Part shown: one piece after another, positions 4,964 through 12,228 of the stretch
Layout: every line of letters starts with the position of its first letter
Numbering within the stretch: position 1 is the stretch's first letter
NCBI RefSeq assembly: GCF_003044035.1
Contig: NZ_NVQC01000022.1
Coordinates: 240,001-272,000 of the forward strand
Direction of reading: 5' to 3'
DNA: 32,000 bases
DNA from: Candidatus Methylomirabilis limnetica
GTDB lineage: Bacteria > Methylomirabilota > Methylomirabilia > Methylomirabilales > Methylomirabilaceae
Position numbers and translations under genes: made by a program
Notes under the pieces: generated by a model
What the model was told of the DNA's origin: nothing
Databases searched by the model: none
The model's input: only the letters and a program-made list of their open reading frames with translations

Positions 4964-5725
4964 CTACGCGTGCGGATCGCTTCCAGCGGCACGCCCGTCC
5001 TGATCGGGGCCGGAGAGAGCGATTGAGCGACGCTCCCATAGGAACAGGCCAAAGGCGATCAGCCCCAGGAGAACCAACGAGGCGTAGCCGTAGTCGCGGG
5101 AGGAAAAGAGGATCAGGTCGTCGAATCGGCCGATGAGTAGCGACATTCTGGCCATCACCGTATAGCCGAACCCTGCGCCGAAGTTAATCATCAGAAAATA
5201 GATTCCGATCCTCGCCGCGACCTTGATCGGTCCTTTATGCTCGATAGAGAAAAAGAAGTAGACCAGGACTGTGACGACGCCGACAAGGATCAGAAGCGCG
5301 TTGAATTGTGCCATCCCGAGAAGGGGCTGTCCGGCGTTCCCGAGCAGCGGCTTCAGGGTCCCTTGGACCTGCTGAAGGATGTTGGAGGAGATGATGCGGG
5401 GGATGGCAACGCCGGAACCGAAACCCACGATTACGGCAAACGAGATCCGGCTCAGCCAGCTTACTTTCGGGATGAAACGAGTCAGGATCAAGAGGCCCAG
5501 AAGGGCCGCAATCAGGAACCACCATTTCCCTTCCTGGGTGACTGGGATATAGAGGCTTTTGACCATAACGTCGTAGTAGATTCGGACGATCGTGTACCCC
5601 ATCGAGATTCCAACGTAGAGGTGCTCTCCGAATCGGAAGAAGGGGTTGTCCTTGTACAGGAAGCTGAACATGAAGAGGGTGAGACCAGCGGCCACCCAGG
5701 CGCCGATGAGGACAGAAGTGGCCAT
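4964..5725 (-). CDS. Polytopic membrane protein, unknown function (cluster gene 7)
   Basis: 253-aa ORF with multiple hydrophobic helices. Its ATG shares one nt with the upstream stop (TGATG). Confidence 0.75.
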   Translation of the reverse strand: MATSVLIGAWVAAGLTLFMFSFLYKDNPFFRFGEHLYVGISMGYTIVRIYYDVMVKSLYIPVTQEGKWWFLIAALLGLLILTRFIPKVSWLSRISFAVIVGFGSGVAIPRIISSNILQQVQGTLKPLLGNAGQPLLGMAQFNALLILVGVVTVLVYFFFSIEHKGPIKVAARIGIYFLMINFGAGFGYTVMARMSLLIGRFDDLILFSSRDYGYASLVLLGLIAFGLFLWERRSIALSGPDQDGRAAGSDPHA

Positions 5726-6582
5726 CAGCGATGAGCCTCCTGCGACGAGCCCGGTCGGATCGTCGTGTAGCGCGTCAGAAAGTAAAAGATATTGCAGAGC
5801 AGAATGAGGCCAATGATGACAAAATGCGTGGCTGATTGCGCATCCATTCCGGCCACCGCCTTCCCCTTCATCCCGATCAATGTCTCGTACTCGGCCGCCC
5901 CGCGCAACCCGCCGATTAAGCCGTTGATCTGCCCGGTATCGAGGAAGGGATAGAGGCCGGGAGCGATCACGGCCGTTACCCCACCACCCAACTCGAAGCC
6001 GTACTTCTCTTTACCATAGACGTACCAGCTTTCAACGCCTGGGGTACCTGCCGCCAGACTGATCACATAGTTGACCTGCCTGAGCGAGTTGACCCCCTGT
6101 AGGACGGGAAGGTCCGCGGTCCGCTGGCCGTAGTGGTCGGTCGGAAAGGCCGCAGCCAGGTCCTGGCCCATGCTGATAATGACGTTGGACCCGCCAGGCG
6201 AGTAGCCCAGGAAGGTGTAGTCCAGTCCCCGCTGTTTCCCATGCTCACTCGCCACACCACTTACCACCTTTTCGGCCATTCCGGTCCCGGTGACCAAGAG
6301 GGTCATACCGATCACTCGCAGGTCCCGCTTGAAGGCATGGTTGAGCAACCCCACGGCCATCGGATAGAGTTCCGGTTTCGAGGCCGGATCGAAGTCAAAT
6401 GACAGCAGAAACACCGATCCGGCTGGAAGCGACTCGATGTAATCGTAGACCTTCCTCACCTCAGGCGAGATTCGGACCGGCAAGCCGATCGGACGGAGGA
6501 GCGGGATCAACGTGGCAAGCGCGATCAGGACAAAAATCACCCGGCGGTCCAGGCGCAGCAGCTTGACGGCCAGCTCCCTCAA
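5725..6582 (-). CDS. N- and C-terminally membrane-anchored protein with a large extracytoplasmic domain, unknown function (cluster gene 6)
   Basis: ORF is open to 6720. The likely start is TTG at 6582 (MRELAVKLLRLDRRVIFVLIALA), just before the first TM helix. A C-terminal TM helix is also present. Confidence 0.65.
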   Translation of the reverse strand: MRELAVKLLRLDRRVIFVLIALATLIPLLRPIGLPVRISPEVRKVYDYIESLPAGSVFLLSFDFDPASKPELYPMAVGLLNHAFKRDLRVIGMTLLVTGTGMAEKVVSGVASEHGKQRGLDYTFLGYSPGGSNVIISMGQDLAAAFPTDHYGQRTADLPVLQGVNSLRQVNYVISLAAGTPGVESWYVYGKEKYGFELGGGVTAVIAPGLYPFLDTGQINGLIGGLRGAAEYETLIGMKGKAVAGMDAQSATHFVIIGLILLCNIFYFLTRYTTIRPGSSQEAHR

Positions 6583-6688
6583 TCTCGGCCTCCCAGGTAT
6601 GATCGCTCGATCCCCAAAGAGGGCGCGGCAAGCAGCGCCCCTACGTTTTCCCTCAATCTCGGCCTCCCAGGTATGATCGTTCGATCCC
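6575..6688. repeat. 40-bp direct duplication (1 mismatch) of a gene junction, flanking a 34-bp GC hairpin
   Basis: TCCCTCAATCTCGGCCTCCCAGGTATGATCG(C/T)TCGATCCC occurs at 6575-6614 and 6649-6688. The spacer contains GGGCGC-ggcaagca-GCGCCC. Confidence 0.9.
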
Positions 6689-10059: not shown

Positions 10060-10067
10060 TCCAAACT

Positions 10068-11861
10068 TCATTTGGGGTACAGGTCGACCGCCTTGGCCCA
10101 GGTGCGCAGTTGGGCGACCCGCTCTGACTCTTCCTCTGCCAGGGCGAGCGGCCGCCCTCTAGCATCCAGGATCAGGCCGACCACTCCGCCTTTCGCCTGA
10201 AGCTTCACCGCTTTCCCCTTCCCGGCACCCAGATCAAAGCTCTTCGACGGCTCCGCCTGGAGGTCGGCTTCTGCTCCAGGCGGAAGATCGATGCGAAGAA
10301 TCTCCCCAAAGCGGAGGGTTCCCTGCACGAGCCCTCCGTCTGCAAATCGGATGGTATACGCGAAACAGGGATCGCCGCGCTTCGCCCTTCCCTCGGCGGC
10401 CAGGCAGCTCCCCAGAGGAACCAAACAGTCCTTCAGGAAGACCTCAGTGGCCGCTCGCTCATTGACCTCGGATAGCACGCCCAAGTGCGGCATCATAAAG
10501 ATACTGTCTACCGCGAATTGCGTCAGTCCAAGCGGCTGGTAGGCGTCGATCATCATCATCATCGCCTGGACGCGGTGCGGTGCGTGGGAGAGAATTCCGC
10601 CGCTCCCGATGATCAGGTCGATCCTGTACAGGTCAATGAGACTCTTCCCACCCTCTTCCTGCTCGAAGGCATCCGCGATAGTCCGTTCCTGCTGCACGCC
10701 CTTCAGGCCAACTGCCAGCGCCTTGTGCTGATCCAAGGCAAGGCGGAGCGCCTCTCGCGCCACTGCTTGCTCCAGGGCCAGGTCTGCCTGTGTCTGAGGA
10801 ATAGTAGTGGGGCGGATCATCTTATTCTTGATCCGATTCCGCATCTCCTGCTCTGCAAGTGGATCGGCCAGCCATCGCTCGATCTTTTCGATGCCGGCCT
10901 CGGCCAGGACATTACTGATGCTGTAGCTCATCCCCAGATTGGCGCTGACTGTCCTGGTGAACTGCCCATCCACCACCGAGAAGACATCCGTTGTGGCGCC
11001 ACCGATGTCCACACCAAGCAGGTTCAACCCCTGCGCTCTCGCCGCATTCTCCATAATGAGACCGACAGCAGCCGGGGTTGGCATGATCGGCGCCCCTGTC
11101 CACCCCATGAGCACCCCATAGCCTGGCGCCTGAGCCATGACGTGCTCGAGGAACAGGTCATGGATCTTGTGACGGGCCGGTGCGAGATTCTCCCGCTCCA
11201 GGATGGGTCTGATGTTGTCCGCCATGACGAGGGCCGTCCGATCGCCCAGAATCTCCTGAATCCGGCCACGCGCATCTTTATTCCCGGCAAAGATCACCGG
11301 AAGCTTAAAGCTCCCGCCGAGCCGTGGCTTCGGATCGGCTGCCCGGATGTACTCTGCCAGTTCCACAACGTGCGAGACGGTTCCGCCATCAGTCCCGCCT
11401 GATAGTAAGATCATATCGGGCCTCAGAACCCGGATTCGCTCGATCTTCTCATGGGCAGCCCTGCCATCATTGCCGGCCAGTACGTCCATGACGATGGCGC
11501 CGGCGCCAAGGGCGCACCGTTGGGCGCTCTCGGCGGTCATGGCCATCACCACACCCGCCACCATCATCTGGAGGCCTCCGCCGGCGCTGCTCGTGGAGAC
11601 ATAGATATCGACCCCGCGACCCTCCTCGGCAGGCGTCAGAATCTTCTCCCCATCCAGGATCTTCCGCCCTGACAGCTCCTCTATCTCCTGGATAGCGTTC
11701 AGCACCCCGCGGGTCACATCGTCGAACGGCGCCTCGACAGTTGTCGGGGACTCGCCGCGGAAGGTCTGGCGGTACTCTTCCCCTACCTTCTCGATCAGGA
11801 TCGCCTTGGTGGTCGTGCTCCCACAGTCAGTGGCCAGGATCGCCGTCATCTCACGACTCAC
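10068..11861 (-). CDS. ASKHA (actin-fold) ATPase, GlmL/MutL-like (cluster gene 2)
   Basis: 597-aa ORF with phosphate-1-like ATDCGSTTTKAIL at the N-terminus, a second GVDIGGATTDVF motif, and LIIGSGGIL. The start could instead be the ATG at 11849, just after the upstream stop. Confidence 0.75.
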   Translation of the reverse strand: MSREMTAILATDCGSTTTKAILIEKVGEEYRQTFRGESPTTVEAPFDDVTRGVLNAIQEIEELSGRKILDGEKILTPAEEGRGVDIYVSTSSAGGGLQMMVAGVVMAMTAESAQRCALGAGAIVMDVLAGNDGRAAHEKIERIRVLRPDMILLSGGTDGGTVSHVVELAEYIRAADPKPRLGGSFKLPVIFAGNKDARGRIQEILGDRTALVMADNIRPILERENLAPARHKIHDLFLEHVMAQAPGYGVLMGWTGAPIMPTPAAVGLIMENAARAQGLNLLGVDIGGATTDVFSVVDGQFTRTVSANLGMSYSISNVLAEAGIEKIERWLADPLAEQEMRNRIKNKMIRPTTIPQTQADLALEQAVAREALRLALDQHKALAVGLKGVQQERTIADAFEQEEGGKSLIDLYRIDLIIGSGGILSHAPHRVQAMMMMIDAYQPLGLTQFAVDSIFMMPHLGVLSEVNERAATEVFLKDCLVPLGSCLAAEGRAKRGDPCFAYTIRFADGGLVQGTLRFGEILRIDLPPGAEADLQAEPSKSFDLGAGKGKAVKLQAKGGVVGLILDARGRPLALAEEESERVAQLRTWAKAVDLYPK

Positions 11862-12228
11862 GGCGCTGTCCCTCCTCCATGAGTCGAAGTCTGTCTACGA
11901 AGAGCGCCGGGGTCTCCTCACGTTCCAGCGCACGCGCGAGCCGTTCGATGTCATCAGGGGAGGCAACCATTCCCATAATCGGTGTCATGGCATGGACCAG
12001 TTGGCTTGCAAGGAAACCGAGTGGGATAAGAGACTCCACCAGGAATACGGCAGGAGTCGCGAGGCCACGATCGGCGAGAAGGCGGGCAAAACGATCCAGT
12101 AACGCGAGATCTTCCGCCTCGATCTGGCTCTCCTGCCTGCGGAGTGCGAAGGCATGGGCGAAGCCGAGACGTAAGCGGGACCGGAATTCTCGCCCGAAGG
12201 CGTTCATGGTTGTGAGTACATCGTTCAT
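11851..12228 (-). CDS. Small protein with a central hydrophobic hairpin, unknown function (cluster gene 1)
   Basis: 125-aa ORF with GC3-rich codon usage. No obvious SD. The stop overlaps or abuts the start of the ATPase gene. Confidence 0.55.
   Translation of the reverse strand: MNDVLTTMNAFGREFRSRLRLGFAHAFALRRQESQIEAEDLALLDRFARLLADRGLATPAVFLVESLIPLGFLASQLVHAMTPIMGMVASPDDIERLARALEREETPALFVDRLRLMEEGQRRES

Follow-up and report, generated by a model that had tools for sequence, protein, structure and literature searches.

Organization of the g1-g7 locus

Seven adjacent genes on the minus strand, designated g1-g7, span positions 4964-12228 of the window (the whole stretch of DNA analyzed, 32,000 nucleotides from Candidatus Methylomirabilis limnetica). 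They lie 3' of gap-pgk-tpiA-secG on the same strand, where the original prediction had placed seven ORFs:

gap, 14946-15947, upstream of g1-g7
pgk, 13640-14836, upstream of g1-g7
tpiA, 12791-13549, upstream of g1-g7
secG, 12312-12683, upstream of g1-g7 (SecG Pfam E 4e-22)
g1, 11851-12228, minus strand, ORF for a small helical protein of ~110-125 aa
g2, 10068-11861, minus strand, soluble 597-aa ASKHA ATPase of the GlmL/MutL family (PF13941)
g3, 8780-9979, minus strand, soluble protein of 399 aa
g4, 7419-8783, minus strand, signal peptide or anchor, ectodomain, TM helix, DUF6754, TM helix
g5, 6653-7291, minus strand, 212 aa with about six TM helices
g6, 5725-6582, minus strand, 285-aa bitopic protein
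g7, 4964-5725, minus strand, 253 aa with 6-7 TM helices

Homologues at 37-86% identity are found in other phyla for every one of these genes, which are therefore more than chance ORFs. By hydropathy, TM segments are present in g4, g5, g6 and g7 (the last three had been predicted as further membrane proteins) and absent from g2 and g3. The cluster is composed of a four-gene membrane core (g4-g7) and a three-gene soluble set (g1-g3), in which the ATP-binding protein g2 is accompanied by its partners g1 and g3.

Overlapping or nearly abutting junctions had been described for the cluster; in the window, three of the six overlap. Genes g1 and g2 overlap by 11 nt (11851/11861), base 5725 is common to g6 and g7, and the g3/g4 overlap amounts to 4 nt with a GTG start of g4 at 8783 or 1 nt with an ATG start at 8780. 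The ATG is the likely start; it gives a 453-aa product, as in the closest homologue and in M. oxyfera.

The soluble set g1-g3

The full-length Pfam MutL model aligns with residues 8-479 of g2 (E 1.4e-125; 420 bits, cut-off 27), and the other Pfam matches of g2 at E <= 0.1 are Hydantoinase_A (weak), Hydant_A_N and BcrAD_BadFG only. It has the same ASKHA ATP motifs as the GlmL/MutL accessory proteins (NCBIfam NF040745, NF040744 and TIGR01319); both phosphate motifs, already noted in the original prediction of a GlmL/MutL-like ATPase, are invariant across phyla together with the GSGG adenosine motif, and the protein as a whole retains 64-84% identity. The NCBIfam models that it matches include 'methylaspartate mutase accessory protein GlmL' and 'GlmL-related ornithine degradation protein', but its scores lie below every cut-off (GlmL, 234.2 against 475 bits; Or-4, 208.6 against 600; glmL_fam, 171.6 against 204). 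g2 further differs from GlmL/MutL in an extra C-terminal region of about 120 aa (~residues 480-597), which is beta-rich, conserved and family-specific, and in its surroundings, where it adjoins g3 and four membrane proteins. In agreement with the original prediction, no B12-dependent mutase (glmS/glmE or oraS/oraE) is encoded in the window, nor in nine annotated related loci (Pfam-annotated neighbors within L081-L091). A sequence-profile search of the PDB returned no relative of g2 beyond generic domains.

The description of g2 as actin-like is accurate at the level of the fold and not otherwise, its relatives being GlmL and hydantoinase-type ATPases, not cytoskeletal actins. Polymerization of g2 in the manner of a bacterial actin, with g4-g7 anchoring the filament in a cell-shape, division or positioning system, would be in keeping with the ASKHA fold, with a degree of conservation that a cytoskeletal or chaperone protein would be expected to show and with the housekeeping neighborhood of the module. 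However, g2 gave no match to MreB, FtsA, ParM or PilM-type models at E <= 0.1, and a core that occurs without g2 and as tandem paralogues is unusual for a cytoskeletal anchor; we regard such a system as very unlikely.

The protein g3 consists of a barrel-sandwich hybrid (~11-125), a beta region, a small alpha/beta domain (~180-296), a disordered Pro/Gly linker (304-335) and a C-terminal KOW/SH3 domain (341-399). The barrel-sandwich and KOW-like domains, both foreseen in the original prediction, are visible in the AlphaFold model (pLDDT 83), and Foldseek retrieved Spt5 KOW5 (rmsd 1.5 A), BCCP and, weakly, a PA domain; at the N-terminus, weak Biotin_lipoyl, RnfC_N and NqrA_N matches (E 1e-3 to 5e-3 for the latter two) stay below the gathering scores. 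The PDB profile and Foldseek searches gave generic domains only. For g1, a 125-aa protein with a hydrophobic hairpin had been proposed; hydropathy and the alignment define one conserved stretch, residues 56-78, with the consensus PA..FLES..PLNFLGSQ. No Pfam, NCBIfam or PADLOC family matched g1 or g3 above threshold.

The membrane core g4-g7

The protein g4 had been read as an FN3-like ectodomain, one TM helix and a cytoplasmic domain. AlphaFold and Foldseek bear out the ectodomain, a confidently modeled beta sandwich of the Ig/FN3-like type (residues 65-190) with a predicted periplasmic location, and hydropathy reveals two strong TM helices (197-215 and the C-terminal 419-437) that flank the alpha/beta domain DUF6754 (PF20539; ~220-415, E 4e-119, 396.9 bits against a cut-off of 27). 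DUF6754 is a family without described function and is not mentioned in the literature searched. It is very highly conserved, polar residues included, and its model is moderately confident, with residues 327-390 below pLDDT 50; His287 and Cys296 are lost in distant members. Within the g4 family (2637 clusters at 50% identity) DUF6754 is constant and the ectodomain is variable, ranging elsewhere from 300 to about 1000 aa and consisting of FN3, coiled-coil, jelly-roll-like or HEAT repeats. Foldseek and the PDB profile search yielded generic domains only for g4.

The bitopic protein g6 has a TM helix at either end and, between the two, an alpha/beta domain of ~220 aa that the positive-inside rule predicts to face the periplasm. 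A conserved His and Asn belong to the C-terminal helix, and the g6 alignment shows very highly conserved polar residues. Conserved residues of g5 are H62, R131, R182 and E204, and g7 carries the motifs LYKDNPFF..AEH, YFFFS.EHKG and FGA.FGYTVMAR.SLLIGR, so that the membrane segments of g5, g6 and g7 all contain conserved charged or polar residues. None of the three matched a Pfam, NCBIfam or PADLOC family above threshold or has a PDB sequence relative, and scans with their homologues (24 for g5, 23 for g7 and 16 for g6) at E <= 10 returned scattered noise only.

Conservation of the module across bacterial phyla

The comparison set consists of 91 loci fetched through g4, from NC10, Nitrospirota, Binatia, Planctomycetota, Elusimicrobiota, Latescibacterota, WOR-3 and others; all the lineages named in record titles belong to diderm phyla. 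The genes stay together as a module in no fewer than eight bacterial phyla. Genes g4-g5-g6-g7 are complete in 67 of the 68 loci with enough downstream DNA, in an invariant order. In 49 of 61 loci, the 10 kb upstream contain both g2 and g3 (52 with three loci cut by an end or masked); these loci come from NC10, Nitrospirota, Binatia, Planctomycetota, Elusimicrobiota and unclassified lineages. The g2-g3-g4 order and the abutting g3/g4 junction are found in at least five phyla, the g3-g4 gap having a median of 4 nt and being at most 10 nt in 71% of loci. The small gene g1 is kept upstream of g2 in 55 loci and, in two Binatia loci, stands directly 5' of g4 without g2 and g3.

The core occurs without g2 and g3 within 10 kb in the remaining nine of the 61 loci (L002, L048, L052, L060, L075-L078 and L080) and likewise in L085, L087 and L090. 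It is also found in tandem, at times duplicated or triplicated, and a WOR-3 genome has it triplicated without g2 and g3, suggesting that the ATPase may be accessory or encoded elsewhere. These arrangements would suit two units that are merely neighbors: g4-g7 as a membrane complex or ion-coupled secondary transporter that works on its own and g1-g3 as a co-regulated soluble ATP-dependent enzyme or chaperone set. Tandem paralogous copies are typical of transporters, and the conserved charged or polar residues in the membrane segments of g5, g6 and g7 fit as well, as do the Elusimicrobia loci in which g3 is separated from g4 by unrelated genes (Opp ABC transporter, TldD/PmbA). Against this, the g2-g3-g4 order and the abutting g3/g4 junction persist in at least five phyla, and no g2-g3 pair without the membrane core was seen in any locus, a comparison biased by the fetching of loci through g4; the separation into two units is considered unlikely.

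By analogy with GlmL/MutL, EutA and DdrA, for which a 'reactivase' role towards their enzymes has been proposed, g2 (with g3 and g1) might instead be an assembly or repair chaperone of the membrane complex and not its motor. The relatives of g2 with a described role are, by their NCBIfam names, accessory proteins only, a single g1-g3 set precedes two tandem membrane modules in L074 and L088, and the core can be present without an adjoining g2. Nevertheless, the high g2 identity and the tight, stoichiometric-looking g3-g4 coupling fit a permanent subunit better, and no cofactor-dependent enzyme is recognizable in g4-g7, making a chaperone of this kind quite unlikely.

Genomic neighborhood

The module is bordered by housekeeping genes, including secG, gap, ffh, trmD, accA, pheT, kdsA and plsY. 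In one lineage, the operon also encodes a TolB-like PD40 protein and a lipoprotein of the OmpA family, kdsA/kpsF/pgsA/plsY precede the module in a group of Nitrospira loci, and four Elusimicrobia loci of one lineage have a GT-C/ArnT-like membrane protein, assigned by reading the sequence and without an HMM, between g3 and g4. The last two observations would agree with g4-g7 being a membrane-bound enzyme complex that makes or modifies an envelope lipid or glycan, in which DUF6754 and g6, with their very highly conserved polar residues, would be catalytic and g2, related to the substrate-phosphorylating hydantoinase/oxoprolinase-type ATPases, a kinase-like activator. Yet no glycosyltransferase, phosphatase or lipid-enzyme family was matched, the GT-C and kdsA/kpsF/pgsA/plsY neighbors are lineage-specific, and His287 and Cys296 of DUF6754 are missing in distant members; we give an enzyme of this type very little weight.

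Comparison with known systems

The two tests named with the original prediction were both run, and the finding withstood them: profile and structure searches placed no member in a characterized pathway, and the gene-neighborhood search found the module co-occurring far beyond this genome. Profile searches (Pfam and NCBIfam) gave no transporter family, in line with what had been reported from the sequence. Known anti-phage defense was rejected, the seven proteins having no PADLOC match at E <= 0.1, as was a type IV pilus or type II secretion system, PilB/T, PilC and PilMNO not being conserved partners; pilB-pilT-pilC are located 3' of the core in L002 and L090 only (one lineage) and are absent from all other loci.

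In its parts list, the cluster resembles MlaFEDB, PqiABC, MacB/LolCDE/FtsEX and GldAFG by analogy, not homology. Such ABC machines combine a cytoplasmic ATPase and accessory protein with permease-like subunits (~6 TM helices each) and with bitopic subunits whose domains lie in the periplasm, and the periplasmic stalk of variable length in distant g4 relatives is also akin to envelope-spanning members of this type. The ATPase here is, however, an ASKHA protein, comparison revealed no similarity of sequence or structure, and no Pfam or NCBIfam match to a P-loop/ABC ATPase, ABC permease, MCE or FtsX was obtained for the seven proteins. Tol-Pal offers a further analogy, as an inner-membrane complex with a periplasm-reaching subunit, and one related operon has PD40/OmpA. 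It differs in that the energy source proposed here is an ATPase and not proton flow, the PD40/OmpA genes are confined to a single lineage, and the TolQ/ExbB/MotA and TolR/ExbD families have no match among the seven proteins. Finally, the N-terminal barrel-sandwich of g3, followed by an alpha/beta domain, is weakly similar to NqrA/RnfC, but neither protein is among the 50 Foldseek matches listed for g3, which has no Fe-S or NADH-binding domains; with sub-threshold N-terminal matches only and no Rnf/Nqr membrane subunit matched, an ion-translocating oxidoreductase was rejected.

Proposed mechanism

The genes g1-g7 match no characterized system and most likely encode an unstudied cell-envelope machine. 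We tentatively favor, at somewhat less than an even chance, an inner-membrane complex with periplasmic domains that acts on the envelope by transport or mechanotransduction, with the ASKHA ATPase powering or controlling it by way of g3. In this proposal, g4, g5, g6 and g7 would assemble into one hetero-oligomeric inner-membrane complex of ~17 TM helices, with the Ig-like ectodomain of g4 and the alpha/beta domain of g6 facing the periplasm and the conserved DUF6754 facing the cytoplasm. g2 would dock on the cytoplasmic face, presumably at DUF6754, together with the small g1 and with g3 as an adaptor (a barrel-sandwich body to which the KOW domain is tethered), and its ATP binding and hydrolysis would power or gate the complex; that g2 drives or scaffolds the membrane part is suggested by the conserved gene order. 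The output would be a housekeeping action on the diderm cell envelope, either transporting a substrate to the periplasm or through it, or passing a force or signal to the wall or outer membrane.

Counted for this complex are the invariant g4-g7 order, the upstream g2 and g3, the abutting g3/g4 and overlapping g4/g5 junctions, the single g1-g3 set preceding two tandem modules, the motifs and identity of g2, the soluble/membrane split, the variable ectodomain beside a constant DUF6754, the PD40/OmpA and GT-C neighbors, the housekeeping neighborhood and the diderm affiliation of every lineage named in record titles. Counted against it are the cores without g2 and g3, the Elusimicrobia insertions, the moderate DUF6754 model and the single-lineage occurrence of PD40/OmpA and GT-C; to our knowledge, no ASKHA-type motor has been described among transporters and envelope machines. 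We regard g1-g7 as a strong lead to an undescribed system, whose function we infer.

Spacers and the g5/g6 duplication

Three features mark the gene junctions:

g2-g3 spacer, 9980-10067, minus strand, 88 nt, long hairpin from inverted heptamer arrays
g4-g5 spacer, 7292-7418, minus strand, 127 nt, two GC-rich hairpins
duplication at g5/g6, 6575-6691, 74-nt duplication with a 43-nt direct repeat around a GC hairpin

The g2-g3 spacer contains tandem and direct repeats (RNA fold -34.2 kcal/mol, z -4.4). The g4-g5 spacer folds at -60.5 kcal/mol (z -2.9), and most other lineages have a 4-nt g4/g5 overlap in its place (median distance -4 nt). At g5/g6, the direct repeat has copies at 6575-6617 and 6649-6691 (offset 74 nt, identity 95%) that represent a doubled g5-stop/g6-start junction, and M. 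oxyfera and L002 keep a 4-nt TTGA overlap there, which bears out the suggestion that the 6653/6582 junction was once such an overlap. The repeat and the overlap in relatives together indicate that TTG 6582 is the true start of g6 (285 aa); the longest ORF, of 331 aa, was rejected as an artefact, the homologues being ~280 aa long.

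Organization of the gene cluster

On the minus strand of the window, seven ORFs designated g1 to g7 lie after gap, pgk, tpiA and secG, spanning 12228 to 4964:

11851-12228, minus strand: g1, ORF for a small protein
10068-11861, minus strand: g2, ORF for a GlmL/MutL-type ASKHA ATPase
8780-9979, minus strand: g3, ORF for a soluble barrel-sandwich and KOW protein
7419-8783, minus strand: g4, ORF for a DUF6754 (PF20539) membrane protein
6653-7291, minus strand: g5, ORF for a membrane protein
5725-6582, minus strand: g6, ORF for a membrane protein
4964-5725, minus strand: g7, ORF for a membrane protein

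The overlap of g1 and g2 is 11 nt, that of g3 and g4 is 4 nt with the GTG start at 8783 or 1 nt with the ATG start at 8780, and g6 and g7 have a single base in common. Both the g2-g3 spacer (88 nt) and the g4-g5 spacer (127 nt) contain stable hairpins by RNA folding; the latter (7292-7418) has a pair of strong GC-rich hairpins, one being GGGGCAGCC...GGCUGCCCC and the other a C6/G6 palindrome, at a place where g4 and g5 overlap by 4 nt in most other lineages. A 43-nt direct repeat (6575-6617 and 6649-6691; 95% identical, 74 nt apart) duplicates the g5/g6 junction around a GC hairpin, and relatives still keep a TTGA overlap of these two genes. Both observations bear out the original prediction that this junction was once such an overlap, and indicate that a 74-nt duplication at 6575-6691 split it. 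The duplicated junction and the overlap in relatives place the true start of g6 at TTG 6582, giving a protein of 285 aa that fits its ~280-aa homologues; the longest ORF (331 aa) is a misleading product of the duplication.

Distribution of the module

In a scan of one genome per species, a g4 relative was present in at least 595 species; the best 80 loci were taken and their genes labelled by tblastn and HMM. The grouping first noticed in this genome holds well beyond it. The order g4-g5-g6-g7 is invariant, all four genes being present in 67 of the 68 loci with enough downstream DNA, and 49 of 61 loci have g2 and g3 upstream at a distance of at most 10 kb, while in three more these two genes are cut or masked; the loci were collected via g4, and g2-g3 is by design seen only alongside g4 carriers. 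Median distances are 4 nt for g3-g4 and -4 nt for g4-g5. Five loci (L074-L077 and L088) have two tandem copies of the g4-g7 unit, and a WOR-3 chromosome (L080) has three. The full order from g1 to g7 occurs again in L088, L089, L091, L084 and the fragment L083, all reached through distant g4 relatives. Nine of the 61 loci, as well as L085, L087 and L090, have the core without g2 and g3 nearby, and in two Binatia loci g1 alone precedes g4. From the loci without g2 and g3 and the invariance of g4-g7 it follows that the cluster is a four-gene membrane core with a three-gene soluble set. That these are two independent units, as the solitary cores could be read, is unlikely. The closest relatives of g3 and g4 are in Candidatus Methylomirabilis / NC10 genomes (80-97% identity); M. 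oxyfera (FP565575.1) has the same gap-pgk-tpiA-secG-g1 to g7 arrangement, and the linkage of the module to secG and glycolysis genes is limited to NC10.

Clustering of all ORFs in the 80 loci revealed no widely conserved neighbour beyond the seven genes, the exception being a ~415-aa protein of the Nitrospirota. Its gene lies just downstream of g7 in 39 Nitrospirota loci (L005-L058) and is absent from NC10 and other phyla; the protein looks Memo/AmmeMemoRadiSam-B-like on reading its sequence. An extra gene directly upstream of g1 is present in some distant lineages and absent from the window:

L074, 5874-6320: extra ~148-aa gene upstream of g1
L088, 6062-6511: extra ~148-aa gene upstream of g1
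L089, 6098-6541: extra ~148-aa gene upstream of g1

Its product combines two TM helices with a putatively PH-like C-terminal part. Within the operon of L084, from a metagenomic lineage, are PD40 and OmpA-family genes (756-1826 and 9073-9837): a PD40 (TolB-like) periplasmic protein is encoded between g2 and g3, both of which are found by tblastn, and an OmpA-family lipoprotein with a coiled coil is encoded after g7, between two tandem membrane modules. Between g3 and g4, four Elusimicrobia loci (L066, L068, L070 and L071) have a gene for a 720-750-aa polytopic membrane protein that, on reading its sequence, resembles a GT-C/ArnT-type glycosyltransferase; L068 also has a putative radical SAM gene with a B12-binding-type N-terminus. 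The insertions between g3 and g4 in other loci are unrelated (Opp, TldD/PmbA and HicA). A link to type IV pili was rejected, the pilus neighbours being confined to one lineage.

The soluble proteins g1 to g3

The g2 protein gives a full-length Pfam MutL/GlmL match (E 1.4e-125) with a secondary match to Hydantoinase_A, and possesses an additional conserved C-terminal domain of ~120 aa. The ATP motifs do not vary, and identity is 64-84% between NC10, Nitrospirota, Binatia, Planctomycetota and Elusimicrobiota. Its score is below every NCBIfam GlmL cut-off, and the window has no B12 mutase, as originally stated; the remaining genes are housekeeping (aconitase, proA, proB, obg, recN, NAD kinase and xseA). 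Because the curated GlmL thresholds are missed and the defining B12-mutase partner is absent, g2 should not be filed as GlmL. A profile search of the g2 family against the PDB matched no chain by sequence. By analogy to GlmL and EutA, g2 and g3 might act as an assembly or repair chaperone; we consider this quite unlikely, and an actin-like scaffold, which the fold of g2 might recall, very unlikely.

The predicted structure of g3 (pLDDT 83) opens with a barrel-sandwich hybrid domain and a beta region. After these come a small alpha/beta domain, then a disordered linker and finally a KOW/SH3 domain, which can be superposed on Spt5 KOW5 with an rmsd of 1.5 A. This whole architecture is common to no PDB entry by Foldseek, and PDB profile searching gave sub-significant KOW/TIM-barrel fragments. 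Alignment and hydropathy describe g1 as small and helical, with a single hydrophobic stretch. Two candidates were rejected: a B12-binding motif in g3, since the His of GGIHD is not conserved, and a domain common to g2 and g3 (hhalign probability <= 0.3%).

The membrane proteins g4 to g7

Topologies of the membrane proteins rest on hydropathy and the positive-inside rule. The g4 protein comprises a signal or anchor sequence, an Ig/FN3-like sandwich, a TM helix, DUF6754 and a last TM helix; the sandwich is modelled confidently, and DUF6754 is modelled as alpha/beta, partly with low confidence. Foldseek matched g4 to Ig domains only, and a PDB profile search of the ectodomain gave only a weak FN3 match. 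An exhaustive profile search with g4 returned 2637 clusters at 50% identity, 964 of them at E <= 1e-30. Among the 150 g4 clusters listed, nearly all have DUF6754 at or near the C-terminal end. The N-terminal ectodomain is almost missing in 361-aa forms and reaches ~1000 aa in others, with FN3 repeats, long coiled coils inside the sandwich or HEAT repeats; some have repeats that by eye resemble jelly-roll/CBM modules. The g5 protein has ~6 TM helices, g6 a ~220-aa alpha/beta domain between two TM helices, and g7 6-7 TM helices. No Pfam, NCBIfam or PDB sequence match was obtained for g5, g6 or g7; extending the scan to 16-24 homologues per protein at E <= 10 did not change this, and in nine public loci their homologues carry no precomputed Pfam annotation. 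By homology, only g2 (GlmL/MutL) and g4 (DUF6754, without known function) have a family. Paralogy of g4 with g6 or of g5 with g7 was rejected (hhalign probability <= 0.3%), as were metal-binding Cys/His residues in DUF6754, which are lost in distant members; a g4-g5 fusion in P0345 is unsupported.

Proposed function

The module proteins matched no family for transport, secretion, pili, division or respiration, PDB profile searches with g2-g7 found no relatives, PADLOC found no defence-system match, and Rfam searches of the window and six loci found no riboswitch or known RNA able to name a ligand. A literature search returned nothing relevant on DUF6754 (PF20539), PF13941, GlmL/MutL or ASKHA ATPases in these phyla. 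Nothing in the profile and structure comparisons puts the set in a known pathway, in agreement with the original prediction of no assignable function. A known transporter or enzyme fold may still be hidden in g5, g6, g7 and DUF6754. A membrane-bound biosynthetic enzyme complex, to which the GT-C-like neighbour might point, is highly improbable, that neighbour being seen in a single lineage.

We tentatively propose, as a reading somewhat short of evenly probable, that g4-g7 would assemble in the inner membrane into a single complex having domains on both the periplasmic and the cytoplasmic side, that g3, translationally coupled to g4, would connect this complex to the ATPase g2, and that the target would be the cell envelope. 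The anatomy of the parts makes this the most economical reading. An envelope target is suggested indirectly by the variable length of the periplasmic reach of g4, the diderm phylum of every lineage named in record titles, the occasional PD40/OmpA and GT-C neighbours and the housekeeping character of the genomic neighbourhoods. By analogy, the parts list is similar to those of envelope-spanning ABC machines (Mla, Pqi, MacB/FtsEX and GldAFG) and of Tol-Pal; however, the module has none of their families and its ATPase fold is different.

It is doubtful, though conceivable, that the module represents a phylum-spanning new class of envelope machine, a four-subunit inner-membrane complex of families without known relatives energised by a GlmL/hydantoinase-type ASKHA ATPase. 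If so, it would be the first membrane transporter or trans-envelope motor on the ASKHA fold rather than on P-loop ATPases or ion flow; an ATP-driven envelope machine would offer membrane biology a new energy-coupling principle and give GlmL-type ATPases a role beyond B12 enzymology. Were its function more ordinary, the module would still offer structural and genetic studies a large and well-defined target. Its carriers are environmentally important, mostly uncultured lineages, including nitrite oxidisers (Nitrospira), anammox bacteria, nitrite-dependent methanotrophs (NC10), Elusimicrobia and Binatia. The module proteins are conserved like core housekeeping proteins, yet three of the four membrane subunits are without a described family.

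Other features of the window

Many intercistronic spacers have a 5' (GUUUCGR)n heptamer array followed a few tens of nt later by a complementary array:

14837-14945, minus strand: heptamer-array hairpin, by RNA folding
13550-13665, minus strand: heptamer-array hairpin, by RNA folding
9980-10067, minus strand: heptamer-array hairpin, by RNA folding
8680-8783, minus strand: heptamer-array hairpin, by RNA folding
20240-20310, minus strand: heptamer-array hairpin, by RNA folding
21725-21835, minus strand: heptamer-array hairpin, by RNA folding

The pairs fold as long imperfect hairpins with z-scores of -2.6 to -6.2, except 21725-21835 (-1.35); one falls inside g4, in its first 100 nt, and is translated. 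Rfam contains none of them, and a role as REP-like elements in mRNA stabilisation or processing is possible.

Another ORF lies beyond g7:

4546-4932, minus strand: 128-aa ORF matching TIGR01413 (E 3e-8)

It is probably a truncated gene, since only the N-terminal part of Dyp-type peroxidases is matched. In M. oxyfera the Dyp gene is full-length (293 aa) and lies ~5 kb farther away from g7, and the intervening DNA there carries SIR2_2, AAA_14/DUF4143, DUF4258 and OsmC genes that the window lacks. Finally, the intergenic regions upstream of gap and of proA share a 32-nt direct repeat (16104-16135 and 20319-20350; 94% identical, 4.2 kb apart).
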